Below are positions 3,448 through 64,000 of a DNA stretch of 64,000 nucleotides, piece after piece. Position 1 is the first letter of the stretch. The number at the start of each line of letters is the position of its first letter. Source of the DNA: Alphaproteobacteria bacterium (GTDB taxonomy: Bacteria; Pseudomonadota; Alphaproteobacteria; Micavibrionales; SZUA-601); the NCBI GenBank assembly GCA_965216395.1, contig OZ244156.1:328765-392764 (forward strand), given 5' to 3'. Under the pieces are notes generated by a model, which was not told the origin of the DNA, ran no database searches, and saw only the letters and a program-made list of their open reading frames with translations. Position numbers and translations under genes: made by a program.

Positions 3448-3471
3448 TCATCTTTTAGCAAGAATTTATTG

Positions 3472-3501: not shown

Positions 3502-3557
3502 ATATCTATATTACCACCATTGGTAGATAACTTAGAGAATTTATGCGTTTAAATTTT

Positions 3558-4674: not shown

Positions 4675-4677
4675 GGG

Positions 4678-10400: not shown

Positions 10401-11525
10401 ATGTCTGACAAGAAAAAGTCCAAAGAAAAATTTAAAAAAGAAAAGCCGATTAAATTTGATAAAAAATCAAATGATTTTCTTTATAAATATTTGAATACAG
10501 CTGCACCTGTCAGTTACGAAAAAGAAGGACAAAAGGTTTGGCTCGATTATATTAAACCCTATATTGATGATCAAATTATTGATACCTATGGCACGGCTGT
10601 TGGGGTTATCAATCCGGGTAAAAAATATAGTGTTGTGATTGAAGCACATTCAGATGAAATTTCATGGTATGTCAATTATATCACCGAAAATGGATATATC
10701 TATGTCACCCGTAATGGCGGTTCAGATCACCAAATTGCGCCATCCATGCGTGTTAATTTACACGGAGAAAAAGGTTTGGTACCCGGTGTCTTTGGTTGGC
10801 CAGCCATTCACACACGTTTGCCTGGTAAAGAACAGGCACCATCCATGGAAAATATCTGTATTGATGTTGGGGCTTCTAAAAAAGTAGAAGTCGAAGAAAT
10901 GGGGATTCATGTTGGTACGGTGGCTGTATTCCAAGATGGTCTGACAGAACTTAATAATAATTATCTTGTGGGGCGTGCTCTTGATAATCGTCTGGGCGGT
11001 TTTGTTATTGCCCAAGTGGCGCGACAAATCAAAGAGAAAAAAATCAAATTGCCCTATACGCTTTATGTCGTGAATTCTGTACAAGAAGAAATTGGTCTGC
11101 GCGGGGCTGAGATGATCTCACGTCGCTTAAAACCTAATTGTGCGATTGTTATTGATGTCACCCATGATACAAATTCACCGATGTATAATAAGAAAAAACA
11201 AGGGGATATTTCTTGTAATAAAGGGCCAACCATTACGTACGGGCCGGCGGTACAAAATAATCTGCGTGAATTATTGATTTCGACAGCGAAGAAGAAAAAA
11301 ATACCGTTCCAACGTGAGGCACGATCTCGCTCAACAGGCACAGATACGGATGCTTTTGCTTACTCTGCTGAAGGGATTGCCTCTGCCCTCATGTCTGTAC
11401 CTTTGAAATATATGCATACAACGGTTGAAATGGCACATAAAGCGGATGTCAACCATGCGGTTGATCTATATGTTGAAACTTTGAAAAATATCAAAGGAAA
11501 AGAAGATTTTTTATATTTTAAATAG
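10401..11525 (+). CDS. M42-family metallo-aminopeptidase (FrvX/glutamyl aminopeptidase-like), copy 1
   Basis: 374 aa. Has HSDEI..., ALDNRLG, QEEIGLRGA and ...YMHT..E motifs of the M42 family. Confidence 0.8.
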   Translation: MSDKKKSKEKFKKEKPIKFDKKSNDFLYKYLNTAAPVSYEKEGQKVWLDYIKPYIDDQIIDTYGTAVGVINPGKKYSVVIEAHSDEISWYVNYITENGYIYVTRNGGSDHQIAPSMRVNLHGEKGLVPGVFGWPAIHTRLPGKEQAPSMENICIDVGASKKVEVEEMGIHVGTVAVFQDGLTELNNNYLVGRALDNRLGGFVIAQVARQIKEKKIKLPYTLYVVNSVQEEIGLRGAEMISRRLKPNCAIVIDVTHDTNSPMYNKKKQGDISCNKGPTITYGPAVQNNLRELLISTAKKKKIPFQREARSRSTGTDTDAFAYSAEGIASALMSVPLKYMHTTVEMAHKADVNHAVDLYVETLKNIKGKEDFLYFK

Positions 11526-11564
11526 ACACAAGTCTTGAATAATTAAAATAAAAACCTTAGAAAT

Positions 11565-11598
11565 AAGAGCTGAACATGCCGTTCAGCTCTTTTATTTT
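11565..11598 (+). terminator. Rho-independent terminator
   Basis: AAGAGCTGAAC-ATGCC-GTTCAGCTCTT hairpin followed by TTATTTTG. It lies between the two M42 genes. Confidence 0.7.
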
Positions 11599-11615
11599 GT
11601 TATAAGGATTTTTTC

Positions 11616-12665
11616 ATGACTTTAAATATCAATCTCCTTAAGGAAATTTGTGTTACCCCGGGAACATCTGGTGATGAAGAACGTATTCGCAAGGTAATCT
11701 TGCGTGAGATCAAAGGATTGGTTGATAAGGTTGATATTGACCATATGGGTAATGTTATTGCTCTTAAAAAAGGCAAATCTTCAGAAAAAAAAGCTATGGC
11801 CGCTGCGCATATGGACGAAATTGGTTTTATGATCACGCATATTGATAAGATGGGGTTTGGGCATTTTAAACCTATTGGAGGTTTTGATCCAAAAACACTA
11901 ACCGCTCAACGTGTCATCATCCATGGTAAAAAAGATATTATTGGTGTGATGGGGTCAAAAGCCGTTCATGTCATGTCACCTGAAGAAAAGAAGAAATCTC
12001 CTGAATTAAAAGATTATTTTATTGATTTTGGTTTGCCTGAAAAAGAAGTTAAAAAACTAATTTCGGTTGGTGATTTTATCACACGTGATCGAGATCTAAT
12101 TGAAATGGGTGATAACGTCTGTACAAAGTCAATCGATAACCGTGTATCGGTTTTTATTCTAATTGAGACACTCCGTACCTTGAAGAAGAAAAAGCCAGCC
12201 TATGATTTTTATGCGACATTTACAGTGCAAGAAGAAGTAGGGATGCGTGGCGCTAAAACAGCAGCTTATAAAATAAACCCTGATTTTGCCTTTGGTTTAG
12301 ATGTAACAGCAGCAAGTGATACACCAGGAACAGCCGAAAAAGATTATTGTACAAAGTTAGGTGAGGGAACTGCGATTAAAGTTATGGATGGTGGTACGAT
12401 ATCTGATGTTCGTATGGTTAGATTTATGGAGAAAATAGCTAAAGCAAAAAAAATTAAATATCAAAAAGAGGTCATGCTTGCTGGGGGCACAGATACTTTT
12501 GCCATGCAATTGGCTGGTGACGGTTGTATAGCGGGGGCAATTTCAATCCCTAATCGTTACATGCATACTGTTGTTGAAATGAGTAATAAAAAAGATGTTG
12601 ATGGCGCTGTAAAACTTCTTACCGCTTGCCTTCAAGATCTCGATTCATTCAACATGAAATGGTAG
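11616..12665 (+). CDS. M42-family metallo-aminopeptidase, copy 2
   Basis: 349 aa. Has AAHMDEIGF, SIDNRV, QEEVGMRGA and RYMHTVVE motifs. Confidence 0.8.
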   Translation: MTLNINLLKEICVTPGTSGDEERIRKVILREIKGLVDKVDIDHMGNVIALKKGKSSEKKAMAAAHMDEIGFMITHIDKMGFGHFKPIGGFDPKTLTAQRVIIHGKKDIIGVMGSKAVHVMSPEEKKKSPELKDYFIDFGLPEKEVKKLISVGDFITRDRDLIEMGDNVCTKSIDNRVSVFILIETLRTLKKKKPAYDFYATFTVQEEVGMRGAKTAAYKINPDFAFGLDVTAASDTPGTAEKDYCTKLGEGTAIKVMDGGTISDVRMVRFMEKIAKAKKIKYQKEVMLAGGTDTFAMQLAGDGCIAGAISIPNRYMHTVVEMSNKKDVDGAVKLLTACLQDLDSFNMKW

Positions 12666-51394: not shown

Positions 51395-51486
51395 GGAGAG
51401 GTGGCCGAGTGGCTTAAGGCGACGGTTTGCTAAATCGTTGTACGTGGAAACGCGTACCGTGGGTTCGAATCCCATCCTCTCCTCCA
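51395..51486 (+). tRNA. tRNA-Ser (anticodon GCU), long variable arm, CCA encoded
   Basis: Acceptor GGAGAGG/CCTCTCC, anticodon loop TTGCTAA, long extra arm (GTACGTGGAAACGCGTAC), T-loop TTCGAAT. Confidence 0.9.
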
Positions 51487-51607
51487 GTTTTGCACAATTT
51501 CTTGTGCGTAAACCATTGAAAAGATTTCATTTATAATTCATTTGATTTCATCCTATTGCATGTTGCGCTGCAATGTGTACCACAATGAGAACCATGAGGT
51601 GAACCAA

Positions 51608-52915
51608 ATGAAATATTTAACACTACGAAACGGATGGTATATTTATAATCGTCGTGTCCCAAATTGTTATAAAGAATTTGACACACGACAACGAATTAGA
51701 ATTGCGCTGAATACCAAATGTGAAAAAGTTGCCATGAAACAACTTCTCATCGTTAATGATGAAGTTGAAAATTATTGGAAACTGCTTGTTAAAGAACAAG
51801 AGACGCATTCTATTGATAAATATAAAAGATTGGTCACAACTGCCAAACAATTGGGCTTTACTTATGTCCCATCAAGTAAATTAACTGAAATCCCTTGGGA
51901 AGATTTCTTATCACGCTTTTTATCTCTTAAAAATCATATTCATCAAAAGGAATTGGTTGAAGTTGTTGCAGGAACAGACGACCAAAGGCAATTGCCGTTG
52001 TCCGAAGCTTTAGAGCGTTTTTGGCAATATTCCAAACCATTATTAATTACTAAAACACCCAATCAACAGCGAATTTGGAAAAATCCACGTAAAAAAGCAG
52101 TTCATAACTTTATCAAGCAAGTTGGTGACAAAAATATCTTTGAGATTACCAATCTTGATATGATTGCTTTGCGTGATTGGTGGCTAGAGCGTGTACAGAG
52201 TGACAATATTAAAGCTGATACGGTCAATAAAGACTTTACGCATTTAAAGGGCATTCTTGAAACGGTGAATACTCATGAACAGCTTAATATGGATATTGAT
52301 GTGATTTTCAAAAATATCTATCTCAAAGAAGATAGCACATCAACACGATTGCCATTTGAAACTGATTTTATCATCAATGAACTTTTAAACGATGATAATC
52401 TTACAGGAATTGAAGATGAAGCAAAATATATTCTTTATGCAATGGCTGAAACTGGCGCAAGACCGATTGAATTGCTCAATCTCAATGGCGAAGATATCTT
52501 TTTAAATGAAGATATTCCCCATATTTATATTCGTCCAAGAAAAGGATATTCTCTCAAAACTAAGGATAGTCAACGTAAAATTCCGCTTATTGGCTATGCT
52601 TTGAAAGCATTCAGAAAATATCCCAATGGGTTTTCAAGATATAGAGATAAATCAAGTCAGTTTTCACATTATATCAATGCGTTCTTGCGTGAAAAGAAAT
52701 TAAGACCCACCTTAGATCATACGCTTTACTCACTACGCCATAGTTTTCAAGATAGGCTTACAGAACATGAAATTCCCGATCGTATTCAGTGTCAATTGAT
52801 GGGGCATTCATTCAAAGCGAAAGGGCGTGTCACTTATGGTAAGGGTGCTAGTTTAAAGCATTTGAATGAAGTTATGAAGCGGATTAGTTTGTATGATAAA
52901 ATATTTTCACATTAA
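51608..52915 (+). CDS. Tyrosine-type site-specific integrase
   Basis: N-terminus MKYLTLRNGWYIYNRRVP... (an arm-type N-domain common in alphaproteobacterial island integrases). The catalytic region has ETGARPIEL, LYSLRHSF, LMGHS and ...TYG. The start is at internal Met 51608; the track ORF starts at 51542. Confidence 0.85.
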   Translation: MKYLTLRNGWYIYNRRVPNCYKEFDTRQRIRIALNTKCEKVAMKQLLIVNDEVENYWKLLVKEQETHSIDKYKRLVTTAKQLGFTYVPSSKLTEIPWEDFLSRFLSLKNHIHQKELVEVVAGTDDQRQLPLSEALERFWQYSKPLLITKTPNQQRIWKNPRKKAVHNFIKQVGDKNIFEITNLDMIALRDWWLERVQSDNIKADTVNKDFTHLKGILETVNTHEQLNMDIDVIFKNIYLKEDSTSTRLPFETDFIINELLNDDNLTGIEDEAKYILYAMAETGARPIELLNLNGEDIFLNEDIPHIYIRPRKGYSLKTKDSQRKIPLIGYALKAFRKYPNGFSRYRDKSSQFSHYINAFLREKKLRPTLDHTLYSLRHSFQDRLTEHEIPDRIQCQLMGHSFKAKGRVTYGKGASLKHLNEVMKRISLYDKIFSH

Positions 52916-52918
52916 AAT

Positions 52919-53821
52919 TTATCTCAAATGATTATCAAACATAAAGAAATACCATTTATTTTCTAATATTCTAACACACCCGTACTTTGAATTATTAGAA
53001 AGAAATTCAGCAAAGTAGTCTTCCAAACTAATTTGTTTATTTTTAAGATTGATTTCGATATCTTCATCTAACACAAACCACTTTTTTTCTTTTAAATAAT
53101 TAATCATCAAACTCCTATCTTCTCTCATTTCATCGAATTCTTTTGAAAAGTATTCCAATTCATTTGCTAATACTAATCTAACTTTTTTTAATTCATTTAG
53201 ATAATTTGAATGTGGATAAATACTATGAGCTATGAATAAATTTAAGAGATGTTTCTTACTAACTTTATAGTTATTAATAGGGTCTTTTATTAAAACTTTT
53301 TCATCTGTAACCTTATAAATTTTTTGAGAATATTTTGACTTACTGGTTAACTCCTTTTTTAAATAGCCAAAAAATTGATTTTCGTCAGGATAAATATCAA
53401 TTAGCCTATCTATACGCTCAACTGCGGAAAAGTACTCCGCGCTTTTTAAGTCTTTAGATATTTTAGAATATATATGCTTTTTGTGAGCATCTTCAATGTG
53501 AGTATAATGAAAATATCTAGCTCTTAAAATATTCCTGAAATTATTATAATTGACTAAAGTAAATATTAAAACCAAGATTAATAAAATTCGTTTGTATTTG
53601 TAATTAGTTAACTTTTGTTTTAGAACATCTAACTTATAAAATATTAACCCTAACACAAATAGTAAGATCAATTCAGGAATTGCATTTTTTAATACTGTAA
53701 TTATAAAATCATAATTGTTACTCTTAATAGCATCTGGGGCTAAAGCTTGAATTACTAATAATAAACCAGAAATAAATGAGAATAAAATACCTGCACGCTT
53801 AATTACAATATCAAAATTCAT
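52919..53821 (-). CDS. Hypothetical protein, 3 N-terminal TM segments plus a soluble domain of about 200 aa (island cargo)
   Basis: 300 aa. TM candidates are GILFSFISGLLLVIQALA, IPELILLFVLGLIFY and ILLILVLIFTLV. The rest is Y/K/N/F-rich with no motif I recognise. The DNA is very AT-rich. Confidence 0.5.
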   Translation of the reverse strand: MNFDIVIKRAGILFSFISGLLLVIQALAPDAIKSNNYDFIITVLKNAIPELILLFVLGLIFYKLDVLKQKLTNYKYKRILLILVLIFTLVNYNNFRNILRARYFHYTHIEDAHKKHIYSKISKDLKSAEYFSAVERIDRLIDIYPDENQFFGYLKKELTSKSKYSQKIYKVTDEKVLIKDPINNYKVSKKHLLNLFIAHSIYPHSNYLNELKKVRLVLANELEYFSKEFDEMREDRSLMINYLKEKKWFVLDEDIEINLKNKQISLEDYFAEFLSNNSKYGCVRILENKWYFFMFDNHLR

Positions 53822-53825
53822 AATT

Positions 53826-54941
53826 TCAAAATTTTATTTTATCTATTGTTTTTGTAATATCTCTGCTATTATCTTTTATCGAATTGTCTGTATCATTAAA
53901 ATAAGCTTTAGGCGGATTTTTCAAAAAATCAATATAATGTTTGATATCTGTTGATAAATTAGAATTTTTTGTTTTGTTTAAAATCAATGTAAGTTGTTTA
54001 ATCCTAATATTTTTATTCTTTAACTTTCCATTGTGACAGTCCCAAAATAGGCATCTAGCTAGCAAATGCATATTTAACTGTTTAAGAAATTTATTATTTT
54101 TGTTAACGCTATTTACTTTTTTAAATACAGTGAAAGCATCTTCTATTTTATTTTCTTTTAGCAAAGAAACTCCTTTTAAATACAAGGAGATTGGATAAAA
54201 TTTAGATTTTTCTGTTATTTCTATTTTATCAATATTCCTTTTAGATATTATTTTATAACCGTTATTATATTCAAAAATATCTAGTATTTGTTCTCCATCT
54301 TTAAAATGGGTATCAAAATATTCTTGATTTTCTAGAATACATTTTAAAATCATACATTCATCAACAGTGTGTAATCTTCTTAAGGGATCAGTATCATCGA
54401 GTAAAATCCTATCAAAAGCTTTATTAATAAACCATTTTGCTCTTGAAAATTGATGTACTCTTATCAAATTCCAAGCTGGTCTTAAATAAAAATTTCTTAT
54501 ATATCTCTCAAAATCTATGAAATTAGATGTAAATAATTCATAATCAGAAACTATATAATTAAGGATTTTTTCTTCGGCATCATACTCAGCCTTTGACAAT
54601 AAAAAAGACGTCATTTCAAAAATATCACTGAATTTATTCTTTTCATAAAACCTCTCAAGCTCTGGAAACTTTTTTCTAATCTTTAAAACCTCATCGGGTT
54701 CAATAAAATTCTGCTCATATAAGTAGTAATCATTCTCCTCTAAATAGTATGCTATCGAGCTAAAACCTAAATCATTTCTGAAGTATTTTGGTCTTTGTAT
54801 TGAGTAGCTTAAATTTTCAAGGTTTTCACTTCGTAAATAATCTATAAGCTTTTTCAAGACATTATCTGAAATATAGAATACACCATAAAGTGCAATGAAA
54901 ATGGGAATTACTTTTTTAAGTAATAAATTAGAATATTTCAT
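53826..54941 (-). CDS. Hypothetical protein, N-terminal membrane anchor plus a soluble, partly TPR-like domain (island cargo)
   Basis: 371 aa with anchor VIPIFIALYGVFYI. The C-terminal third is helical-repeat-like (ISLYLKGVSLLKENKIEDAFTVFKKV). A 4-nt gap separates it from the downstream gene. Confidence 0.5.
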   Translation of the reverse strand: MKYSNLLLKKVIPIFIALYGVFYISDNVLKKLIDYLRSENLENLSYSIQRPKYFRNDLGFSSIAYYLEENDYYLYEQNFIEPDEVLKIRKKFPELERFYEKNKFSDIFEMTSFLLSKAEYDAEEKILNYIVSDYELFTSNFIDFERYIRNFYLRPAWNLIRVHQFSRAKWFINKAFDRILLDDTDPLRRLHTVDECMILKCILENQEYFDTHFKDGEQILDIFEYNNGYKIISKRNIDKIEITEKSKFYPISLYLKGVSLLKENKIEDAFTVFKKVNSVNKNNKFLKQLNMHLLARCLFWDCHNGKLKNKNIRIKQLTLILNKTKNSNLSTDIKHYIDFLKNPPKAYFNDTDNSIKDNSRDITKTIDKIKF

Positions 54942-54990
54942 TCATTATAAATTTTACTTTTTTTGATTTAAATAGAAACTAAATTATTAA

Positions 54991-55024
54991 TTAAAACAAA
55001 ACAAGCATTACGGTTTACCGTAAT
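54991..55024 (-). terminator. Rho-independent terminator after the TrwC-type relaxase gene
   Basis: Hairpin ATTACGG-TTTA-CCGTAAT (55007-55024). On the minus strand GCTTGTTTTGTTTT follows it. Confidence 0.55.
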
Positions 55025-55058
55025 AAATAAATGTTTTCTATTAAAGTTAAAAAATATA

Positions 55059-57668
55059 TCATCTCCTCATCAACTCCAAAGCACCTATTCTGTCACCTGA
55101 TTGTTTGGTGGCATTGAGGAGTTCTTGCTTATCGTCGGTATAGATTGTCACGGCTTCACGTCCTCGTGAAACACTGACGTAAAATTGTTTTTGGTTTGAA
55201 GCGTTGAATGTTACGGTAGGTTGATTAATGAGAACATGGTCAACGGTTTTACCCTGTGCGCTGTAAGATGTATTAGCATAAGCATAGTCAAAATTCCCAT
55301 GTCTTTTATTTAAGATTATTGGACTGGTTTTATGGCTTGTTTCTTTAGTAGTTTTAATATTTCCATCTTTGGTAAAGCCAACCACTTTAAGAACTGTACC
55401 ATTATCAAGACGCTTGCCTTTCATATCATAACTGTTTTTGGTTATTCTGATTTCATCACCACGACTTAAATCAATTGGGCATGGTCGATACAAATCAAAA
55501 TAACGTGTCTTATTAAGTGGTAATTCGTGATTATTTCCTTGAATATCTGTGACAATTACACGTCCTTGATGATTATCCACAATTTGTAAAACACTGCCTC
55601 TTTTGATATTTTTTAGGTTTTGATGTGCTTGAATAATCAACCCCTTTTGATAATGACGCACATCTTGCTTATCCCCATCTGTTAAATACAGGCTTTGATA
55701 AGTAGTAAAATTCTTTTGCCTTTTACCGATGTAGTTCAGAGTTTTAAGCTTTTCACGAATACCTAAATTAAGTTCTCTGACATGATTGCGTGTTGGCGAT
55801 ATCACGAGAACAGATTTTTTCTGACCTTTCAGATCAATATAATCACTTATCAAGCTTTCAGATATTTTATCAATAGGAAGCTCAATGATTGAATTGTTTT
55901 CATCCAGTTGCGTAAAACCTTGCTCAATATTGCCCTGACTAATGGCATAAACTGCTTGTTTATAGCTTTCTTGTTTCTGTCTGAATATTTCATTGAGTGA
56001 AACATATGGAATTTGTCCAATCGTTTGTAAAATCCGCATAGCATCGCCTCTTTGTACGGCGCTATGTTGTCTTGGATCACCAACAAAAATAACACGCGCT
56101 TGTTTTTCTTCCGCCAGTTCCAAAATCAGATTTGCATCTTGCGCGCCAAGCATACCCGCCTCATCAATCAAAATAACTTGTCCTTGGATGTCGTGTTGGA
56201 TTGTCTCATTATTAAGCAGTTGAAACACCGTATCAGCATGTTCAAATCCCTCATGGCGTAAAACATCACGTGACGCTGTCGCAGTCGGCGCAAAAATGGA
56301 AACTTTAAAACCTTGATATTCAATAAAAGGGATGAGGGTTTTAAACAGCGTGGTTTTACCTGTTCCTGCGCCACCGCGCACCATTGTCAGAAAATCTTTT
56401 GAACGCATGATATGTTTAAGAGCTTTTTGTTGTTCATTTCCAAGATGTAATTCTAGGGTTTCATCAAAACGCTCATCAAAGGCAGGGTATTTACCAATCC
56501 CGCGACGGGCAATATCAATCATCTGTTTTTCTTCATCATGGACTTTATGGCTTGTGTAGAGATATTGTGTCCCAGATTTAACCTTAAAGAGTTTAGTATT
56601 ATTGGCAAACTTTTCGTCAATTGCCGCTAATGTGACATCCTTATTATCTATCGCATAATAATAGGCATGGGTTAAAATCTGTGTTTTACGCCTTACAGAA
56701 TTACGGGTAAAAGATTTTTCAATAGCAAAATTAACCGTTTTATGTGCGTTCAAATCAAGATTTTGTGTGGGTTGTTCTTCGGGTTCATCATCAATGCCAT
56801 ATTCGGTTAGTTGGTCTTGCCATTGTTCTTTTAATTGTGGAAGCGTTAGCGTATTATTCTTGCGCTGTCTAGTTTGTGCGCCAAGTTGGTCTAGAGCTTT
56901 AGCATTGGTAATATTCTTAGACTTGGCGACTTCGCCAATCAAATTGGTGCGTTTTGAAAAAAGCGCGATGGCATTTTTGGGAACAACCGATAGTTCAAAA
57001 CCATTACTGGTTTTTCGAATACCATAGCCCAATTCACTGTAACGGTCGGCTAAACGCTTTAAAAATCGAGCTTGGTAATAAGGCATATCTTTTTTAATCT
57101 GATAAAATTGTCCTGCTTTAAAGCGTTGTTCAACCTCATCATAGGTAGTATTAAAGACAAAAATATGCTGATGAACGTGGCAATCGGGCGCAAAATTTTC
57201 AACAGGGCGGGCGGTCAAATGAGTAAAGTCACACCAAATCATTTCGCCTGTGACACGATCATCATTTTTACCATGTTTGCGGATGCGTGTTTGGGTTGCA
57301 GTTTCGATTTCCAACATGGTTTCATAAACACAAGTTTGAAAGGCTTGTAAGATAGTTTTATCAAGTGTTATCCCATAAAGAATAGACACAGATTTAGGAC
57401 AATGGAAACTTATATCATAACCAACGCGTCGATAATCAAATGTTCTTGGTGTTAAGGCTTGTCCAGTTTGGGGATTGATATTATCGCACAATAAATCAAA
57501 AGTTGATTTTATGATGGGCTTATCCTTTAAATCAAGTCGTTCGGCAATTTTACCGTAAAAATGACCGCTTGATTCTTGCCCCTCAATATAATAATCCGCC
57601 TTTGATAAAGAGGAAGCAAAATAAGTTTTTGTTTGGACAATATTACTTGATTGGTGCATACGTATCAT
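55059..57668 (-). CDS. TrwC/TraA-type (MOBF-like) conjugative relaxase fused to a RecD-like helicase
   Basis: N-terminal TrwC relaxase pattern (...ADYYIEGQESSGHFYGK...; THLTARPVENFAPDCHVHQHIFVFN histidine triad). Helicase Walker A GGAGTGKTT and Walker B ILIDEAGML. ATG 57668 is preceded by AAGGAG with an 8-nt spacer. The track's GTG at 57677 overlaps that SD. Confidence 0.85.
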   Translation of the reverse strand: MIRMHQSSNIVQTKTYFASSLSKADYYIEGQESSGHFYGKIAERLDLKDKPIIKSTFDLLCDNINPQTGQALTPRTFDYRRVGYDISFHCPKSVSILYGITLDKTILQAFQTCVYETMLEIETATQTRIRKHGKNDDRVTGEMIWCDFTHLTARPVENFAPDCHVHQHIFVFNTTYDEVEQRFKAGQFYQIKKDMPYYQARFLKRLADRYSELGYGIRKTSNGFELSVVPKNAIALFSKRTNLIGEVAKSKNITNAKALDQLGAQTRQRKNNTLTLPQLKEQWQDQLTEYGIDDEPEEQPTQNLDLNAHKTVNFAIEKSFTRNSVRRKTQILTHAYYYAIDNKDVTLAAIDEKFANNTKLFKVKSGTQYLYTSHKVHDEEKQMIDIARRGIGKYPAFDERFDETLELHLGNEQQKALKHIMRSKDFLTMVRGGAGTGKTTLFKTLIPFIEYQGFKVSIFAPTATASRDVLRHEGFEHADTVFQLLNNETIQHDIQGQVILIDEAGMLGAQDANLILELAEEKQARVIFVGDPRQHSAVQRGDAMRILQTIGQIPYVSLNEIFRQKQESYKQAVYAISQGNIEQGFTQLDENNSIIELPIDKISESLISDYIDLKGQKKSVLVISPTRNHVRELNLGIREKLKTLNYIGKRQKNFTTYQSLYLTDGDKQDVRHYQKGLIIQAHQNLKNIKRGSVLQIVDNHQGRVIVTDIQGNNHELPLNKTRYFDLYRPCPIDLSRGDEIRITKNSYDMKGKRLDNGTVLKVVGFTKDGNIKTTKETSHKTSPIILNKRHGNFDYAYANTSYSAQGKTVDHVLINQPTVTFNASNQKQFYVSVSRGREAVTIYTDDKQELLNATKQSGDRIGALELMRR

Positions 57669-57839
57669 AGAAATCACTCCTTAAATTAATCATGAAGTGA
57701 TTATTTACCCTATCTATAATGAGGGTGGTACGCACAGTCTGTACTCATAAATAAGGTTAATGTAATTTTTAACGCAGTGCTTTTATTTCTTTATGAATGA
57801 GTATGCAAAGTAAAATTTTAGGGGGATTTAAATTTCTTG

Positions 57840-57868
57840 CACTGCAAAATTTAAGAATTTTTGCAGTG
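57840..57868. repeat. Perfect 10-bp inverted repeat upstream of the TrwC-type relaxase gene (candidate oriT/operator element)
   Basis: CACTGCAAAA (57840-57849), a 9-nt spacer, then TTTTGCAGTG (57859-57868). It lies in the 284-bp non-coding gap 57669-57952. Confidence 0.6.
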
Positions 57869-57952
57869 TTATGATATGTCAGACATCTCCCCGCGTTTTT
57901 TAGCGGGCGTGATTTTCAAAATAAACCTAACGTTTTTTCGAATAAAGAAACT

Positions 57953-59653
57953 CTATTTTATGTTCTTCTCAATTTCTAGAACATCGAATATTTTTTTAAG
58001 AGGGTATTTATCTTTATTATTAGGATAAATATTGCTAACATAACGTTCAAATGGTAAATTCATTTTAGCCATATCATTCTCATCGTATTTTTTATTGAAT
58101 TTTCTTTCAAAACGCTTCAAATATTGAAAATAACCATCCGCTAGTTCTCTTATATCAAAATGTGGCAGTTGATGAATTTTTTCTATTAAAAAAGATATGT
58201 TCATGAAAAGTAAATTCTCTATCTTTTTAAAAGTATTAGTCAAATCTTTCTCTAAGTTTAATCTTGCTTTGAATTCACCATTCAGATAACGATTAACTCC
58301 TGGCATACTAAAGAAATTATCTGTATAGATTATTATTGGATATATTATAAGATTTCTTTGCTTCAACTTTAATTCTTTATAGCTTTTGTCCTCAAATGGC
58401 TTATCCATAAGTTTTTTTAATTGCTTAACAATCTGTCCTGTTCCTTTTGATTTTGTATTATATTTGGTATCGATGGCACTTTTAATTTTTTCATAATCTA
58501 AAGAATTAATTGCCTTAGCAGGAAAATAGGCATCTTTGATTTCGAAAAGAAAAATAAATTTCCCAAATCTGTAATATGCATCGGGGAAACCATCATTTTT
58601 GTAATCATCAAATTTTAAGATTGAATGTTTCTTATTCAAATAATGAGAAAGGACTTTTTTAAAAATATGATCTTCAGTTACTTCTTGACCTAAAAAATTT
58701 TTAAAATCCGGAAAATTTTTAAATTTTGGATTATCAGCAATTCCGGAGCTTGCATAAAAATCAAAAACTAATCCCTCATAAGTTTTATTAATAATAAAAT
58801 TCCAATTAAAGACAAAAAACTTATTCGGTTGTATTTCAATTAAAGGTGATTGTTTTAGACCATTGAAATTCTTTTTATCTTTTACATACTCTTTTTGATA
58901 TTCATCAAGTTTTAAAGTGAAATTTTCGAGTATTCTCTCTGTAATATCTCCTTTTTTGATTACAAAGGGTGTTGAGTCTTTATCTGAAATATCTTTTGAC
59001 CAACTCGCTTGCAATGTATTTGTTATTGTCATTATATAATGCCAATAACTTTCTTTTTGATTATATCTCGTAAATGCATCAACATAGCCGTCAAATTCTG
59101 GATGTTTTTTTAGAACATTAAAAAACACAAGCGAGCGAATAAGATTATGCATTGGTCTAATATGATGATTAACCTCATATTGATCTATAAAAGTAGGCCA
59201 TGTTTTTACTTGAAAAAATTCGCCATTATCGTCATTTGAATTAAATGAATGCTCATATCTTTTATTTATCGTACTGGTAATTACTAAATATGCTTTAAAA
59301 AAATTCAATTCTTGTTCTGGTGTAGTGTCTACAATTGAAAAATCACGATAATTTATTAATTCATAATGAATGAATTCTAAGCTATATCTAATACTAAAAA
59401 TATCAACTCTTTGTTCAGTTTCATATTTTGAAAGTCGATCTAAAATTCGATTTCTTAAAACACTATCAAATCGTCTAGAAATTAAATCAAAAAGTTTTCT
59501 TTGAGTTGCTCTTTTACCCAAAAACAACTCAGCATTAATAAGGCAAAGCATACTAAGTGTCACATTCGATGGAATATCTTTTAGTAAATCTGTTAATTTT
59601 GGTATCTCATCATCGAAAATATCTGAGTAGGTAGGTGTAATAATAAATTCCAA
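57953..59653 (-). CDS. Hypothetical protein with C-terminal PD-(D/E)xK nuclease-like motif (island cargo)
   Basis: 566 aa. Residues 355-373 read GFPD-AYYRFGKFIFLF-EIK (D358/E371/K373, nt 58535-58582), followed by GQIVKQL. The N-terminal 340 aa or so are unassigned. Confidence 0.55.
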   Translation of the reverse strand: MEFIITPTYSDIFDDEIPKLTDLLKDIPSNVTLSMLCLINAELFLGKRATQRKLFDLISRRFDSVLRNRILDRLSKYETEQRVDIFSIRYSLEFIHYELINYRDFSIVDTTPEQELNFFKAYLVITSTINKRYEHSFNSNDDNGEFFQVKTWPTFIDQYEVNHHIRPMHNLIRSLVFFNVLKKHPEFDGYVDAFTRYNQKESYWHYIMTITNTLQASWSKDISDKDSTPFVIKKGDITERILENFTLKLDEYQKEYVKDKKNFNGLKQSPLIEIQPNKFFVFNWNFIINKTYEGLVFDFYASSGIADNPKFKNFPDFKNFLGQEVTEDHIFKKVLSHYLNKKHSILKFDDYKNDGFPDAYYRFGKFIFLFEIKDAYFPAKAINSLDYEKIKSAIDTKYNTKSKGTGQIVKQLKKLMDKPFEDKSYKELKLKQRNLIIYPIIIYTDNFFSMPGVNRYLNGEFKARLNLEKDLTNTFKKIENLLFMNISFLIEKIHQLPHFDIRELADGYFQYLKRFERKFNKKYDENDMAKMNLPFERYVSNIYPNNKDKYPLKKIFDVLEIEKNIK

Positions 59654-59664
59654 ATTATATATTT

Positions 59665-60429
59665 TTAACGTTTAAAACCACGATCACGTTTTTGTTCAAT
59701 CTCATTTTGGTTCTCTTTGAACTGGCTTTCTCTTAGCTTTTCGTAGGCTTGGTCAAGCTTATTATTTGTCATTTCAAGCTTATGTTCTTCAAAATCCTTC
59801 AATTTTTCATTCGGTATTTCTTGTGATTGATCAAACTTATTATTTTGCTCTTGAAGCTTTTCTTGATTTTGTAATTGATCAATTGGACTGTTTGTTTTTT
59901 TTATCCTTTCTTCGCTACTATTTCTTTCTTTATGATATTCTAGTGAGTCATTTGCTACTTCTTGTGATTGATCGAGAGTTTTATTTTGTTTTATTCGTTT
60001 ATCATATCTGACAATGTCATTTTTGTTTTCTCTAAATGGCTGTAGTTTTCGATTGTTTATAACTTCGTCACGCCCTTTTTCAATAAAGGTTGGTAATTCA
60101 TTCGTAGAAAATTCTTTTAACTTATCTACTAATTCATCGCCACCCATTTCCTTACAGTGGTCATGAGCAACTTTTTCTATCTTTTTAGCATTCTGATCTA
60201 ACTGTTCTTTGAAGCGTTTCTCTCTACTCTTTTTATCCTTTGATTTGTCAAGTTTATAGGTTCTTGGCGGTAATTTTTTAGCCCAACTAGGCTTTGGCGT
60301 ATAGTCTAGCTTATTATAAGTCGTGTCCTTATGATAATCCGCTTCAATTTGTTTTCTCTCATCTAAAAGCTCTTTAATTTCAATAAGATTTCTTAGAACA
60401 TCCCTTAATTCATTATAGTTTGTTGACAC
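59665..60429 (-). CDS. K/E/Q-rich protein with internal repeats, likely coiled-coil (island cargo)
   Basis: 254 aa with a GTG start and no obvious SD. Repeated peptide K(L/F)DQSQE(V/I), encoded by the 15-nt direct repeat TTCTTGTGATTGATC at 59818 and 59959. An 11-nt gap separates it from the downstream 566-aa gene. Confidence 0.45.
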   Translation of the reverse strand: MSTNYNELRDVLRNLIEIKELLDERKQIEADYHKDTTYNKLDYTPKPSWAKKLPPRTYKLDKSKDKKSREKRFKEQLDQNAKKIEKVAHDHCKEMGGDELVDKLKEFSTNELPTFIEKGRDEVINNRKLQPFRENKNDIVRYDKRIKQNKTLDQSQEVANDSLEYHKERNSSEERIKKTNSPIDQLQNQEKLQEQNNKFDQSQEIPNEKLKDFEEHKLEMTNNKLDQAYEKLRESQFKENQNEIEQKRDRGFKR

Positions 60430-60475
60430 TTGATAAGTTTTATGTTAAGTTACAATAATTAATTGAGGTGCAAAA

Positions 60476-60847
60476 ATGAGCGAGTTTGTGGAAACACCAG
60501 AAAGATTAAAAGCCTACAATACAGAAAATATCGAGTTTAAAGACAAGGCTCGAAGACTTATCATTAAAGAATTAGGATTTGAACCGAACCTTAGAGCTTC
60601 TTTAGGATTTGAATTACTGATAAGACATATGTTAAAAAATGTTTACATAGGTAAGCTTTCGAAAAAAAAGCTTAGACAGCATTTATTAGTTTTGTGTAAT
60701 GCCACACGAGATAGTATTAGACGAGAATGCCCCGAACAAGTTTATCTCTTAGAGAAAAAACGTCCTAGCGTTTCTTACCTCTATCTTGGGCTTGGTTTTC
60801 TCGGGCTTTGTCTTCTTGGTGTTCTAGCATTTTTTTGGTTTGGCTAA
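60476..60847 (+). CDS. Small basic protein, possible DNA-binding regulator, hydrophobic C-terminus (island cargo)
   Basis: Strong SD (GAGGTG) 7 nt before the ATG. 123 aa. The last 28 codons or so are antisense to the K/E-rich 3' end of the relaxase gene, which mechanically yields a Leu/Phe-rich tail. Confidence 0.45.
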   Translation: MSEFVETPERLKAYNTENIEFKDKARRLIIKELGFEPNLRASLGFELLIRHMLKNVYIGKLSKKKLRQHLLVLCNATRDSIRRECPEQVYLLEKKRPSVSYLYLGLGFLGLCLLGVLAFFWFG

Positions 60848-61838
60848 AGGCATCTTCGAGTGTTCGTGAACGCGTTATACCATCGCCATTATCGCTAAAT
60901 TCGCTTTTTTTCTTTTCCCATCGTTCCTCTTTAAAATCTTTAATCAGTTTTTCAAAGCGTGCGCTGGCTTGTCCGATTTCATCTTTAGTGACCATGTTAA
61001 AAGCATTTTCAACTATCACTTTTTTCTTATATTGGATATCTTGTTTTTTCTCAGCTTTCTTTTCTTTACTCTGTGATCGCTCTTTTTTTAAATCCTCAAC
61101 TTTGGGGAGTTGCTTTATGATCGGTTGCAGTTTTTGCTCAACGTGTTTTTTCTTCTCACCCGTAAAGCGCATCAGGGAATGAACTTGGTTTTTATCACTA
61201 ACCAGAACGACACCACGCCTGCCAATCGCTAAATTGAAGCCTGCCTTTTTTAAGGCGGTTTGTAATTCTTGCGGGTTTGAGTGTTGTTGATAGAGTTTCT
61301 TTATGCGCGCTTTCAATTGTTTGGGCGTATAGCCATCACGAATAGTTTGTTGGCGTTCATTCATTGTGTCCCAATTGGAACCAAACTCAGCTTTGAGCGT
61401 TTTATGTTTAAAACGTTGTTCTAAATCACGCCCAAGTTTTTTATGAATGTAATAGTCATTTTTTGTGTCAATGACTTTACCTTGTTCTACATCCGTGCGT
61501 TGCCAGACAACATGAATATGGGGACGTCCGCCTTTTTCATGATAGACAACCGCGCGCGGTTGATTGGTTAACCCTAAGCGGTTTTCCATTTCATTGACAC
61601 TATATTGCCATTGTTGGGGTGTCATGGTTTCACCGATGGCAGGATTAATCTGTGCGTGATAAAGCCCTGTCTTGGCTTTGGTCATCTTTGCGGTCAGTTC
61701 CATGTCTTTCAAGGCTTGGGTGAGGTCTTGTGTCGCTGTACCCGTAATCTCAACCACGACAATACGCTCATTATCATCTTTAAGGAGATGTTGAGCTAAA
61801 CTCGCGCCATTGGAACGTTTCCCCCCTTTACAGATCAT
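60765..61838 (-). CDS. MobA/VirD2-family relaxase (mobilization nuclease domain)
   Basis: N-terminus MICKGGKRSNGASLAQHLLKDDNERIVVVEITG and YHEKGGRPHIHVVWQRTD (HxE...HxH metal triad). These match the alphaproteobacterial MILKGSQRGG...AAHLL...FHEKEGRRHAHCVW relaxase family as I recall it. Confidence 0.8.
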   Translation of the reverse strand: MICKGGKRSNGASLAQHLLKDDNERIVVVEITGTATQDLTQALKDMELTAKMTKAKTGLYHAQINPAIGETMTPQQWQYSVNEMENRLGLTNQPRAVVYHEKGGRPHIHVVWQRTDVEQGKVIDTKNDYYIHKKLGRDLEQRFKHKTLKAEFGSNWDTMNERQQTIRDGYTPKQLKARIKKLYQQHSNPQELQTALKKAGFNLAIGRRGVVLVSDKNQVHSLMRFTGEKKKHVEQKLQPIIKQLPKVEDLKKERSQSKEKKAEKKQDIQYKKKVIVENAFNMVTKDEIGQASARFEKLIKDFKEERWEKKKSEFSDNGDGITRSRTLEDAFSQTKKMLEHQEDKARENQAQDRGKKR

Positions 61839-62175
61839 ATCCTAGAGCTTGACGGAGATCTGTACGCATGGCTTCAATTTGTTTCAATAAAGATTGCCCT
61901 AATGCAACATCCGTTGGATTGCCACTATTGTAATGTTTGGCGATTTGATTGATATTCCCGCCAATCTTACCCCAAGAAGCCAAAAGCTTAATCAACAGGG
62001 CTGTTTCAGCGCCTGATTTCAGCGGTTTGGATTTCAGCGCGGTTTTGCGAAAATAATCCGCGCCACTTAACCCCGCTTGTTCACAGCGCGCCAGAAAGTT
62101 TTGTTTTTCCTGTGCTGTCAGGCGAAATTGCACCAATTCATTGCGCTGTCGCTTTTCACTTCTTTTTTTCTTCAT
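61828..62175 (-). CDS. mobC: MobC-family relaxosome accessory protein
   Basis: RNELVQFRLTAQEKQNFLARCEQAGLSGADYFRKTAL plus ...GGNINQIAKHYN is the MobC pattern. Overlaps the relaxase start by 11 nt. Confidence 0.8.
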   Translation of the reverse strand: MKKKRSEKRQRNELVQFRLTAQEKQNFLARCEQAGLSGADYFRKTALKSKPLKSGAETALLIKLLASWGKIGGNINQIAKHYNSGNPTDVALGQSLLKQIEAMRTDLRQALGYDL

Positions 62176-62204
62176 AACTCAAAAAAAAATAACTCAACCC
62201 TTAT

Positions 62205-62290
62205 CGGGGAGGATTAAACGGACGGGGAGTTTCCCCTCCTTTACAAGGGTGGCGGTATGACCGCCCCATACCTTGCATCTGCCACTCAAT
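62205..62290. other. Candidate oriT of the MobC/MobA module
   Basis: GC-rich structured patch directly upstream of mobC. Hairpins GGGG-AGTTT-CCCC (62224-62236) and GGCGG-TATGA-CCGCC (62251-62265), followed by CCTTGCATCTGCCA (62271-62284). Confidence 0.45.
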
Positions 62291-62438
62291 AGAAGTTTTT
62301 TCTTAAATAAAGATAAGGATTTATTTGTAAAAACGATGCGCTTATCACTTTAAAAATATTCACCAAACACACGAAATAGGATGTATTCTGGTAAGATTTT
62401 GGGGGCAATGCCCCGCATTTTAGGGCTTTAAGATTTTC

Positions 62439-62466
62439 TTGACTCTTGTTCGATAATATGTATAAT
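62439..62466 (+). promoter_or_regulatory. Near-consensus sigma70-type promoter for the 337-aa gene
   Basis: TTGACT (62439-62444), a 16-nt spacer, then TATAAT (62461-62466). It lies 30 nt upstream of ATG 62497. Confidence 0.5.
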
Positions 62467-62496
62467 AATTAGGAACTGTAATAACAGAGAATTGTC

Positions 62497-63510
62497 ATGG
62501 ACGCGTTTTCATTTCGGATAAGTTTAATCGAGTTAACAAAGCCTGTATTAAATAATGCGCATGACGCTGTTCAAGGATTAAACGCCATCAAACAAGCAAT
62601 TGACTTTCTTCTACTTAGTAACGATGAAATAGATCATCAAGAAAGACAAGAACTCATCAATAAGAGTTTTGATATTATCGGTGGTCAATATGATTTACCC
62701 GAAACAAAACAGGAATTTTTGCAAACAAACCCTGATAAAGTGATTTATGGTTTGACACAGCACTTAAAAAGTCAAAATCCATTATCAACGCTTTATAATT
62801 ATGACATTCCGTCCAATCTTCCCAAGAATGCACAATCTGATTATGTGGAACGTTTGAGAACTTGTGCAAAAGACTCAGCCTTTTATGATTGTTATTTACG
62901 AGATACCAGTCGGCTTGACAATTTAGAGGGGATTAGTTCATCACCCGCAGAACCGAATTCCGATGAATTGGGGTATATCCATCCAAGAGAACGTGAATAT
63001 AAAGCCTATAAAGCAAGACAAAGAGAAATTGAATTAGAAGAAGCTAGAGAAGCATATGAAGCACTCAACCGTTCATTTCTTCGTGATGAGAATGGTAAAG
63101 TCAATCTTAATGAATACAAAGGTGGCGAAGATTTTTTGGAAAAGATACATTTTCTCAAACACAGCTTTTGGTCGCTAAGAGATGCGGGTAAGATTCCTAG
63201 TAATAGTGATTTCGCAACCTTTAGAACGCTTGATTATGATTTCATCATGGGAAAGCTTATAGAAAATCAAATTGTGGTAGATTATCCTGAATATCGATCC
63301 CTTGAAGATGAAAATGTCAGACAAGCCCATTATGAGCAGAAAGCACAAGAATTTGGTGTCAGTGTTGAACTCCTAACAATGGATATTCGTGATGTACCTA
63401 ATCAAGATGATAGCCTCAATGCTTTTAGGGAAAATGCCCAAGAAGTTTCATTAGGTCAACGGCTTGTCAATGGCGTCAAAAAAGCGGTTGATTTTGTTAA
63501 ATCCCTTTAA
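62497..63510 (+). CDS. Hypothetical protein (island cargo)
   Basis: 337-aa acidic, helical-looking ORF with no recognisable motif. A promoter-like element lies upstream. Confidence 0.5.
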   Translation: MDAFSFRISLIELTKPVLNNAHDAVQGLNAIKQAIDFLLLSNDEIDHQERQELINKSFDIIGGQYDLPETKQEFLQTNPDKVIYGLTQHLKSQNPLSTLYNYDIPSNLPKNAQSDYVERLRTCAKDSAFYDCYLRDTSRLDNLEGISSSPAEPNSDELGYIHPREREYKAYKARQREIELEEAREAYEALNRSFLRDENGKVNLNEYKGGEDFLEKIHFLKHSFWSLRDAGKIPSNSDFATFRTLDYDFIMGKLIENQIVVDYPEYRSLEDENVRQAHYEQKAQEFGVSVELLTMDIRDVPNQDDSLNAFRENAQEVSLGQRLVNGVKKAVDFVKSL

Positions 63511-63563
63511 TTGAATTGATTAATTTATCAAAATATTATTTTTCTTACTTAACATATAAATTT

Positions 63564-63607
63564 TTATTGTATTTTCATGGTTGAATAACCGTAAAAAAAT
63601 ACAATAA
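63564..63607. repeat. Long imperfect inverted repeat / stem-loop abutting the next start codon
   Basis: TTATTGTATTTT (63564-63575) pairs with AAAATACAATAA (63596-63607). There is an inner GGTT-GAAT-AACC stem. The 3' arm ends 1 nt before ATG 63608. Confidence 0.55.
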
Positions 63608-64000
63608 ATGAGATTTATTAATCTTGGTAAAAAACGTCGTTCAAAAAATAGACTTAGAAATACCAATCCTATGATTGTTAATATCTTATGGTATGCATTG
63701 GTAATTTATTCAATTATATCTGCATTTGACAAGAAATCCTACCTTGGTCCTTGGCTTTTGGTTTTAATAATCTTCTTGGTTGCTATTTCTTTTATCCACA
63801 GTTACAAATTTATTAAGTTTCATAAATATGCTGATAAATTTGAAAATAATGATCCTTGGTTACCGAAAAACTTTGAGATTAAACTTCCACCAACTTTACA
63901 AAAAATTGTAGATCGTAATGCTGATGATGTTCGTAAAGAAATGGGCGTTGAAAAATATATTGAAGCCCTTGAAGCCGAATTAGAATTTCTTCATGAACAT
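63608..64000 (+). CDS. Hypothetical membrane protein, N-terminal part (continues beyond the window)
   Basis: Not in the ORF track because it is truncated. My translation is MRFINLGKKRRSKNRLRNTNPMIVNILWYALVIYSIISAFDKKSYLGPWLLVLIIFLVAISFIHSYKF... It has two TM segments and stays open to the window edge (131 codons). Confidence 0.45.
   Translation, partial: MRFINLGKKRRSKNRLRNTNPMIVNILWYALVIYSIISAFDKKSYLGPWLLVLIIFLVAISFIHSYKFIKFHKYADKFENNDPWLPKNFEIKLPPTLQKIVDRNADDVRKEMGVEKYIEALEAELEFLHEH

Follow-up and report, generated by a model that had tools for sequence, protein, structure and literature searches.

The island at tRNA-Ser(GCU)

The 64,000-nt stretch of DNA analysed here (the window) consists of a core (positions 1-51394) and, beginning inside a tRNA-Ser gene, the left part of an island (51468-64000) that continues past position 64000. 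The gene for tRNA-Ser(GCU) (GCT in the DNA; 51395-51486, plus strand) was called by both ARAGORN and Rfam. Its last 19 nt, AATCCCATCCTCTCCTCCA (51468-51486, plus strand), form the crossover core of the left attachment site (attL): similarity to a sibling element in Kordia, described below, begins exactly at 51468. Downstream lies int1, a tyrosine integrase of the DUF6538 type with tRNA-Ser as its target (51608-52915, plus strand; PF20172 and PF00589, both above the Pfam cut-offs), whose ATG at 51608 is 122 nt past the last tRNA base, with 121 nt between the two genes. Both attL and int1 are clear in the window; the right attachment site (attR) lies outside it.

The island carries two unrelated relaxase systems. 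One is a MOBF relaxase in which a TrwC domain is fused to a superfamily 1B (SF1B) helicase (55059-57677, minus strand; PF08751, AAA_30, TraI_2B, UvrD_C_2 and NF041492). The other, encoded separately, pairs a NikA-like/MobC relaxosome accessory protein (61828-62175, minus strand; PF21983 at 54 bits, PF05713) with a MobA/VirD2-type HUH relaxase of the MOBP/MOBQ superfamily (60765-61838, minus strand; PF03432), called the second relaxase from here on. Both relaxases score above the Pfam cut-offs, and each system has its own conserved candidate for an origin of transfer (oriT-F and oriT-P). The island thereby has a relaxase and a candidate oriT of its own, the mark of an integrative mobilizable element (IME), and has both twice. 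A first-pass annotation of this DNA, made by a model from the letters alone, had pointed to the tRNA-Ser gene with its integrase, to a sharp fall in GC content and to the two relaxase systems, and all three observations are borne out. We read this region as the left 12.5 kb of one composite IME of ~26 kb, belonging to a family resident in marine Flavobacteriaceae, and give this reading a probability of roughly 0.72.

The island has a GC content of 32.7%, against 39.2% for the core; the row of sequence beginning at 53581, singled out in the first-pass annotation, has exactly 11 G+C in 60 nt. The drop is concentrated in three orphan open reading frames (ORFs) that occupy two cargo slots. Slot 1 holds orf300 and orf371 (52919-54941, minus strand; 24.6% GC) and slot 2 holds orf566 (57953-59653, minus strand; 26.5% GC), none of them with a family match. 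The backbone genes of the island have 34-44% GC, and the lowest 2-kb window of the core has 32%. Families of type IV secretion system (T4SS), coupling-protein and replication genes in Pfam and NCBIfam matched none of the 10 island ORFs. Rfam reported only three tRNAs above threshold in the window, and a megablast search of the island against plasmids returned no match.

A complete sibling element in Kordia

A scan of species-representative genomes seeded with the PF03432 relaxase yielded four loci (L001-L004). Their second relaxases are identical to that of the window at 94% (Kordia sp. TARA_039_SRF), 88% (an uncultured Kordia), 69% (a metagenome-assembled genome (MAG) of Dokdonia) and 65% (a Cellulophaga MAG) of positions. 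The Kordia sp. TARA_039_SRF locus (L001, L005 and L008) provides the sibling, whose ends were read from two merged overlapping contig segments. Positions 51468-64000 of the window are colinear with it at 92-95% nucleotide identity. There are a few exceptions: identity drops to 71% over orf123 together with the 5' half of orf254, the cargo has been replaced in two places, and the sibling has one additional insertion.

The sibling measures 26,045 bp, from a complete tRNA-Met(CAT) gene to a perfect 44-nt repeat of the 3' part of that tRNA, with ordinary housekeeping genes on one side and a cluster of the type that makes ribosomally synthesized and post-translationally modified peptides (RiPPs) on the other. 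Its left arm runs from tRNA-Met through NA37, a 405-aa protein, a 140-aa protein, HTH_3, o92 and o76 to the 19-nt tRNA-Ser core. The middle, most of it shared with the window, comprises int1, cargo, TrwC, cargo, an orf254 homologue, the PF03432 relaxase, NikA, oriT and an orf337 homologue. There follow two paralogous two-transmembrane ORFs, a 457-aa VirD4/TraG-type ATPase, DUF3768, o89 and HTH_17, and then, towards the right end, two ORFs, RadC, o494, DUF6705, int2 and the tRNA-Met fragment.

Family matches revealed no VirB4 or other mating-pore gene among the 31 genes of the sibling. It has a VirD4-type ATPase and no pore genes, and so is an IME that supplies the coupling protein itself. A complete mating pore (a VirB4-type ATPase with its partners), as expected of an integrative conjugative element (ICE), is found neither in the window nor in the complete sibling. 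The earlier suggestion of an IME at a tRNA gene is supported, with two apparently intact relaxase systems in the window and a complete sibling free of mating-pore genes. The claim that the visible part lacks T4SS, coupling-protein and replication genes stands as far as family matches go; it fails in one respect, since the membrane part of a coupling protein begins at 63608. The ATPase of this coupling protein goes unseen because the window ends at 64000; in the sibling it lies ~1.3 kb further on.

The predicted family backbone comprises int1, the MOBF relaxase, NikA/MobC with the MOBP/Q relaxase, a VirD4/TraG-type coupling protein, DUF3768, an HTH_17 excisionase-like protein, RadC and int2. 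Both relaxase genes co-occur in 5/5 loci that cover both regions (the window, the two Kordia loci, Dokdonia and Cellulophaga). Across L001-L004 the second relaxase is 65-94% and TrwC 53-95% identical to the window proteins, and the pair is kept even where TrwC has fallen to 53-57% and the second relaxase to 65-69%. The Cellulophaga element has TrwC at a different place, on its opposite side beside DUF3768. L002-L004 show the same backbone, and no pore genes were seen in them. Three further loci (L092, L009 and L095) show only int1, TrwC and DUF3768 within the 21 kb examined.

A contig of 1,649,955 nt is on record for the int1 of the window (100% identical), for nine core proteins, and for a homologue (86% identical) of o494, a gene from the far end of the sibling. 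All of them are apparently on the same contig, which lends indirect support to the presence of the right part of the element in this genome. A combined query with NA37, the 405-aa protein and int2 for the remaining element in the window's genome returned no match.

Two integrases and their proposed attachment sites

A search with int1 found 417 homologues at E<=1e-10, and all those carrying a source name are from Bacteroidota; the copy in Kordia sp. TARA_039_SRF is 94% identical. The sibling contains the 19-mer at which its similarity to the window starts only once, in its interior; this copy precedes the called start of int1 by 55 nt, at a place without a tRNA. This internal copy is therefore attP-like, and the window can be read as the same circle opened there. 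The same 20-mer or a two-mismatch variant lies upstream of int1 in Flavivirga abyssicola, Flavobacteriaceae MHTCC 0001 and GCA_947488435, in which int1 is 56-62% identical and also internal. The 19-20-mer core is accordingly found ~55-150 nt upstream of int1 in four elements without a tRNA at that position; the flanks of the core have diverged across the latter three elements and the core itself has not. The Flavivirga abyssicola element adjoins tRNA-Leu(CAA), and GCA_947488435 has a diverged member of the family at the same RecQ-fmt-HU-START_2-tRNA-Met site as the TARA_039 sibling.

The second integrase, int2, adjoins the 44-nt repeat of the sibling and has Arm-DNA-bind_5, SAM_5 and Phage_integrase domains, a set which we take to be typical of Bacteroidota integrases. 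Its putative attP equals the 3' half of tRNA-Met(CAU), and a tRNA-Met-like 3' fragment lies beside int2 in Dokdonia too. The fragment beside int2 is an incomplete tRNA. GTACAAC-N4-GTACAAC arm-like repeats are present at both the tRNA-proximal and the int2-proximal ends.

The simplest reading of these observations is that the excised circle would carry two attP sites, with Flavobacteriaceae copies usually opened at attP2. We infer that int2 opened the circle into tRNA-Met and that a related integrase, encoded outside the examined sequence, opened it into tRNA-Leu. Judged by colinearity, the same element would sit at tRNA-Ser in the window and at tRNA-Met in Kordia sp. TARA_039_SRF, with a diverged member at tRNA-Met in GCA_947488435.

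In the cycle that we propose, the element would excise as a circle and either relaxase would nick its own oriT. The coupling protein of the element would then link the relaxosome to a mating pore supplied by a conjugative element in the same cell, and in the recipient either integrase would insert the circle into its tRNA target. The window would represent the circle opened at attP1 by int1, into tRNA-Ser, and Kordia sp. TARA_039_SRF the same circle opened at attP2, in tRNA-Met. The unseen right part of the window's element would be expected to contain int2, an intact attP2, the left-arm genes of the sibling and a second copy of the 19-mer. It is plausible, as the first-pass annotation had it, that two relaxases would let the element exploit two different conjugative machineries.

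A side observation concerns the tRNA-Met site. L095 (~4470-4545) and L008 (5135-5209), from two related genomes, have the RecQ-fmt-HU-DUF179-START_2-tRNA-Met locus in common and each carries a family member there, and the T-arm of tRNA-Met differs between them (GGGGGATCGTGCCCCC against TCGGGTTCAATTCCCGA), which suggests that the element may supply a different tRNA 3' half in each. Scans of viral contigs with int1 and with the second relaxase gave nothing useful.

The MOBF relaxase and the oriT-F candidate

The TrwC-type protein (872 aa) reaches 180 bits with PF08751 and, with the NF041492 MobF equivalog (cut-off 100), 157 bits. Its DYY tyrosines and His triad (H..HxH) are intact and align with those of R388 TrwC (PDB 1OMH). 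TrwC domain, tyrosines, His triad and SF1B helicase, the features expected of a MOBF relaxase, are all present in the window protein.

Upstream of its gene lies oriT-F (57872-57922, minus strand), recognised by a conserved motif and a covarying stem: a CCCGC/GCGGG hairpin followed by GGAGATGTCTG at 57880-57890. A 14-mer, GGGGAGATGTCTGA, is exact in the window, the TARA_039 sibling (L001/L008), L002, L003, L004 and L009. The 11-mer GGAGATGTCTG is also present in L095 and in the Runella plasmid pSP2_3, where it stands behind a CCTTAG/CTAAGG hairpin ~100 nt upstream of mobF. The motif is invariant, with a covarying hairpin, in eight independent elements that include this MOBF-only plasmid; the stem varies by paired substitutions (CCCGC/GCGGG, CCTAT/ATAGG, CCCTAA/TTAGGG and CCTTAG/CTAAGG). 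Within the family, oriT-F keeps its position relative to the orf254 gene, with cargo inserted on either side. The family-wide candidate can be written as the hairpin followed by GGAGATGTCT, and the TrwC-like domain would cut after TGTCT in the hairpin plus GGAGATGTCTGA. Hairpin and GGAGATGTCTG together are our candidate for the cognate oriT of the MOBF relaxase.

The second relaxase, NikA/MobC and the oriT-P candidate

The second relaxase (357 aa) scores 72 bits on PF03432 (cut-off 24.6) and misses the cut-offs of two NCBIfam models, TraI_MobP and Bacteroid_MobB, the latter by a wide distance (45 bits against 400). The coupling protein likewise reaches only 30 bits on Bacteroid_MobC (cut-off 900), and with both scores under the cut-offs the system is not of the CTnDOT MobA/MobB/MobC type. 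The best plasmid match of the second relaxase, pTF4.1, is typed MOBP. Immediately upstream of the relaxase gene lies that of the NikA-like/MobC protein (115 aa; PF21983 cut-off 27), which is 65-96% identical to its counterparts in related loci. A PF03432 domain together with an upstream accessory ribbon-helix-helix (RHH)/MobC gene places the system in the MOBP/MOBQ superfamily. Solved structures yielded no sequence match to the second relaxase. Its gene and that of orf123 converge, and their 3' ends overlap by 83 nt (60765-60847).

The first-pass annotation had credited this module with an oriT-like region. Upstream of mobC we find oriT-P (62206-62278, minus strand), which consists of two inverted repeats followed by GTTTAATCCTCCCC. 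This 73-nt block is near-invariant in five elements while the remaining intergenic region diverges. Its DNA fold has a predicted energy of -18.5 kcal/mol (z = -2.9), and pTF4.1 has the same two-hairpin layout upstream of mobC. Its sequence ATCCTC is similar to YATCCTG, the nic consensus of MOBP systems. The block is our candidate for the oriT of the second relaxase.

The coupling protein, cargo and other backbone genes

The window ends inside its last ORF (63608-64000, plus strand), a two-transmembrane ORF of which only the 5' part is visible; by homology to the sibling it encodes the N-terminal membrane domain of the coupling protein. It is 76% identical to a 224-aa ORF of the sibling, a paralogue of the 225-aa ORF just before the VirD4-type ATPase of 457 aa, and homologous to residues ~43-228 of a fused 681-aa coupling protein in Dokdonia (L003). 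In both Kordia elements the coupling protein is made of two paralogous two-transmembrane ORFs and a soluble 457-aa ATPase (3461-4135, 4161-4838 and 4835-6208 in L005); the fused Dokdonia version lies at 6464-8509 in L003. The window version is likewise split, and is cut at 64000. One may speculate that the two membrane ORFs act as alternative adaptors, each fitting a different mating pore.

The first-pass annotation had called the cargo entirely orphan. This stands for orf300, orf371 and orf566, which have no match in Pfam, NCBIfam or PADLOC and are absent from the related loci; the sibling carries two other ORFs in slot 1. A single-sequence AlphaFold model of orf566 had a mean confidence (pLDDT) of 34, was unusable and was discarded. 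The same claim fails for orf254 and orf123, which are conserved backbone, and for orf337, which is common to the two Kordia loci. Cargo slots flank TrwC on both sides and are also found upstream of the HTH_3-o92-o76-int1 block, and their contents differ from member to member (other examples are at 11379-12541 and 15444-16716 in L008, 1-3781 in L092 and 5718-7614 in L095). Other members carry a DUF6879 pair, a Gabija-like pair of OLD-TOPRIM and UvrD proteins, and a SMODS and S_4TM pair resembling a cyclic-oligonucleotide-based antiphage signalling system (CBASS). Because the slots hold defence-like pairs in other members, the orphans of the window may be undescribed defence genes.

Among the backbone genes, orf254 (59665-60429, minus strand) encodes a K/E/Q-rich repetitive protein whose homologues occupy the same position in L001, L002 and L004 and are poorly conserved in sequence (31-51% identity); the gene contains imperfect direct repeats of 41-48 nt (59729-59988) at spacings of 78 and 141 nt. 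The small protein with a hydrophobic C-terminus encoded by orf123 (60476-60847, plus strand) has homologues in L001, L002 and L004, with two copies in L004 (Cellulophaga). Only the window and the two Kordia loci have orf337 in common (62497-63510, plus strand; 97% identity to L001 and 77% to L002), with a trace of 29 residues in L003.

The RiPP-type cluster on the right flank of the sibling (13641-18725 in L005) has five tandem genes of 114-116 codons, faint NHase_alpha matches (leader-type peptides) in 4/5 of them, a DUF4135 (LanM-like) protein and a glycosyltransferase.

The host genome and the tRNA-Ser junction

The core was characterised through its proteins, expression signals and tRNA genes. 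Nine core proteins, including ClpX and TopA, each stand alone in their 90%-identity cluster in a set of ~15 billion proteins. The best cluster representative for TopA is 58% identical; the second best is 54% identical, and the named members of its cluster are Rickettsiaceae, among them Ca. Megaera. The best match of GatB in the Joint Genome Institute (JGI) metagenomes is 70% identical. Shine-Dalgarno (SD)-like motifs precede 13/48 core ORFs and 0/15 ORFs in Flavobacteriaceae flanks (p=0.03), and the Bacteroidota -7 motif TAnnTTTG lies upstream of 2/48 core ORFs against 5/12 in Flavobacteriaceae flanks (p=0.002). CCA is encoded in all three tRNA genes of the window. When ClpX, TopA, the histidyl-tRNA synthetase HisRS and GatB were scored against solved structures, ClpX slightly favoured gammaproteobacterial entries, and the best PDB matches of HisRS were a 465-aa bacterial HisRS (3net) and cytoplasmic HisRS chains, with no E. 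coli entry recognised. A close relative of E. coli was considered as host and dropped, TopA scoring only ~508 bits over 590 residues.

By these measures the core genes of the window are not Kordia-like and are probably not from Bacteroidota, and the core genome appears to belong to a poorly sampled lineage. The core is not Kordia-like and the island is 92% identical to a Kordia element; therefore, there are two possibilities for this junction, transfer between phyla or a chimeric assembly.

The tRNA-Ser gene itself bears on this question. Its 5' part resembles the tRNA-Ser(GCU) downstream of gatB in distant host relatives (checked on contigs of 46-67% GC). By reading, the core forms correct pairs with the 5' strands that the host contributes to the T-stem and the acceptor stem, and the host tRNA is therefore a genuine attB. 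A scan of JGI metagenomes with GatB returned only relatives of <=70% identity and no empty attB was found; a metagenome scan with the 303-aa protein encoded next to the tRNA gave no match.

Two observations on the distant host relatives are recorded here. Six of them (L031, L046, L017, L033, L045 and L034; GatB 65-70% identical, contigs of 58-67% GC) have tRNA-Ser(GCU) 3-7 kb downstream of gatB. The tRNA-Ser of the host relatives ends in ...CTCCGCCA with discriminator G; that of the window ends in ...CTCCTCCA with discriminator T, like the core of the element.

Alternative explanations

Several explanations compete with that of a single composite IME. As its own alternative, the first-pass annotation had proposed two elements accreted in tandem at one tRNA, which here would be two independent mobilizable elements (int1 with TrwC; NikA with the second relaxase), each able to excise alone. 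The modules are indeed unrelated, each has its own oriT, and the family carries two integrases; that some relatives show int1, TrwC and DUF3768 without the second relaxase in 21 kb would fit a past fusion. However, no repeat of the tRNA-Ser 3' end, allowing <=3 mismatches in 25 nt, occurs between the modules or elsewhere in 51487-64000 (the tRNA 3' 25-mer has a single match in the whole window), and the sibling has only its outer tRNA-Met repeats and one tRNA-Ser core, with no sub-element bracketed by attachment sites. The relaxase pair, moreover, is conserved down to 53-69% protein identity in three further genera, one of them with a different gene order. Because there is no internal attachment-site repeat and both relaxases are co-conserved, we reject tandem accretion as very unlikely. 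Since the window ends inside the element, with the coupling protein just outside, the element might also be a full ICE with its mating-pore genes beyond 64000. This is hardly credible for a family whose sibling is delimited at 26,045 bp, with its 31 genes accounted for and no pore-family match, and in which L002-L004 show the same backbone without pore genes. A different doubt concerns the TrwC-type protein, which might serve mainly in rolling-circle replication or maintenance from oriT-F, or in recombination, with transfer left to the second relaxase, NikA and the coupling protein. The window has no replication gene and the Pfam matches of the sibling genes include none, the protein carries its own helicase, and relaxase-driven replication of excised ICEs is established. 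Site-specific recombination by TrwC is established as well (PMC4176350). However, the same relaxase and motif are found on a Runella plasmid that is typed mobilizable and has its own RepA, and the protein there is therefore most simply a transfer relaxase. We consider a mainly replicative role rather unlikely, and replication and transfer do not exclude each other.

The junction could also be an assembly artefact, an island from Flavobacteriaceae and an unrelated genome having been linked by the tRNA-Ser sequence common to both; metagenome assemblies are known to form chimeras at tRNA genes. The isolation of the core proteins (their 90% clusters, TopA at 58% and GatB at 70%), the non-Bacteroidota pattern of SD and -7 motifs, and the 92% nucleotide identity of the island to a Kordia element despite so unlike a core would all be expected of such a chimera. 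Against it, the similarity breaks exactly at the 19-nt core, where site-specific recombination would put it, and the tRNA is similar in its 5' half to the tRNA-Ser(GCU) of host relatives, with stems that pair with the core. The known common sequence is only 19 nt, shorter than usual assembly k-mers, and a contig of 1.65 Mb suggests a high-quality assembly. Crossing a wide taxonomic gap is itself documented, in the transfer of Bacteroides IMEs by IncP plasmids and the integration of NBU1 in E. coli (PMC5704250). An artefact is, on this evidence, unlikely. The fuller proposal, that a Flavobacteriaceae element was truly inserted in the tRNA-Ser of a bacterium of another phylum, enabled by its alternatives at each step (two attP/integrase pairs, two relaxase/oriT pairs and two membrane adaptors), is put forward tentatively, as a possibility that we hold to be less than even.

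Some points weigh against the composite IME itself and should be set beside its 0.72. L092, L009 and L095 leave room for a MOBF-only sub-family, and the composite may be a fusion; an ancient fusion of an int1/TrwC element with an element of int2, second relaxase and coupling protein is possible. The int2, attP2 and left-arm genes (NA37 to o76) of the window copy are extrapolated from the sibling. No helper conjugative element was found, and excision and transfer are putative. Element and core come from different lineages, and the junction between them may therefore be a product of chimeric assembly. Because int1 abuts a real tRNA-Ser only in the window and is internal in 4/4 Flavobacteriaceae elements examined, its use is seen at a single junction. 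The putative catalytic motifs of the second relaxase (LYH, HxxxxxPHxH) were read by eye only.

Comparison with known systems

The composite IME resembles NBU1, NBU2, Tn4555 and MTnPi4 in having a tyrosine integrase that targets a tRNA 3' end, a relaxase and oriT of its own, and no mating pore. NBU1 and MTnPi4 insert in tRNA-Leu and NBU2 in tRNA-Ser, with a MOBP-type relaxase and dependence on a helper ICE (PMC5704250). Those Bacteroides and Prevotella IMEs have one relaxase, no coupling protein and one attachment system, whereas the present family has two relaxase classes with two oriT candidates, a VirD4-type coupling protein, and two integrases with two tRNA targets. Its second relaxase and coupling protein, far below the Bacteroid_MobB and Bacteroid_MobC cut-offs, also set it apart from CTnDOT-type elements. 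According to a 2017 review, canonical IMEs with a MobF relaxase were not known at that time (PMC5704250), and we found no description of the present family in the literature.

Like R388 TrwC, the TrwC-type protein has at its N-terminus an HUH relaxase, complete with paired tyrosines and His triad, to which an SF1B helicase is fused. The layout of oriT-F is also that of the R388 nic region, which has a hairpin and then 8-9 nt with TGTCT at the end: in R388, inverted repeat IR2 is followed by TATTGTCT and the nick, a sequence that we confirmed to be present in IncW plasmids. This hairpin-plus-single-strand layout has been described, with substrates named by the 25 nt before the cleavage site (PMC4176350). 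The family protein differs from R388 TrwC in being only ~25-30% identical, in its length of 872 aa and in having no recognised TrwA-type accessory gene, and it is carried by an integrated, pore-less element of Bacteroidota type, whereas R388 is a conjugative IncW plasmid. Its closest plasmid relative is on pSP2_3 of Runella sp. SP2 (39% identity over 99% of the query). That plasmid is mobilizable, typed MOBF, and has the hairpin and GGAGATGTCTG upstream of mobF as in the family; unlike the family, it replicates as an 11-kb plasmid, encodes RepA and only one relaxase, and has no annotated integrase. For the second relaxase, pTF4.1 of Acidithiobacillus ferrooxidans is among the closest plasmid relatives (38% over the nuclease domain). 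It has the mobC-relaxase order and a two-hairpin oriT upstream of mobC, and differs in being a 4-kb proteobacterial plasmid with one relaxase and neither coupling protein nor integrase.

Tripartite ICEs likewise carry several recombinases. As far as is known, those of tripartite ICEs and of "Tyr duo" elements either work jointly on one set of ends or build a single element out of several parts. In contrast, the two integrases of the present family appear to give alternative attP sites, and both kinds of target are seen occupied. The Tyr duo elements MTnPi1-3 are those with more than one tyrosine recombinase per element (PMC5704250). Plasmids with two relaxases are rare (258/11,386), mostly carry two of the same class, and have been read as transient co-integrates with little selection for both (PMC9185392). 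The MOBF and MOBP/Q pair described here, in contrast, belongs to an integrated element and is kept across genera.

Mobilizable islands are the most numerous and least understood hitch-hikers on conjugation. A large plasmid survey saw little selection for two relaxases; in the present family a MOBF relaxase and a MOBP/Q relaxase, both with a candidate oriT of their own, have been retained in several genera. It therefore offers a direct test of whether redundant DNA processing and integration widen the range of helpers and hosts. If the junction in the window is real, the element has moved between a marine Flavobacterium and an unrelated, poorly sampled lineage. Should the inter-phylum reading be true, the family would be one built for a wide range of hosts and helpers, and the window would record a natural transfer between phyla.

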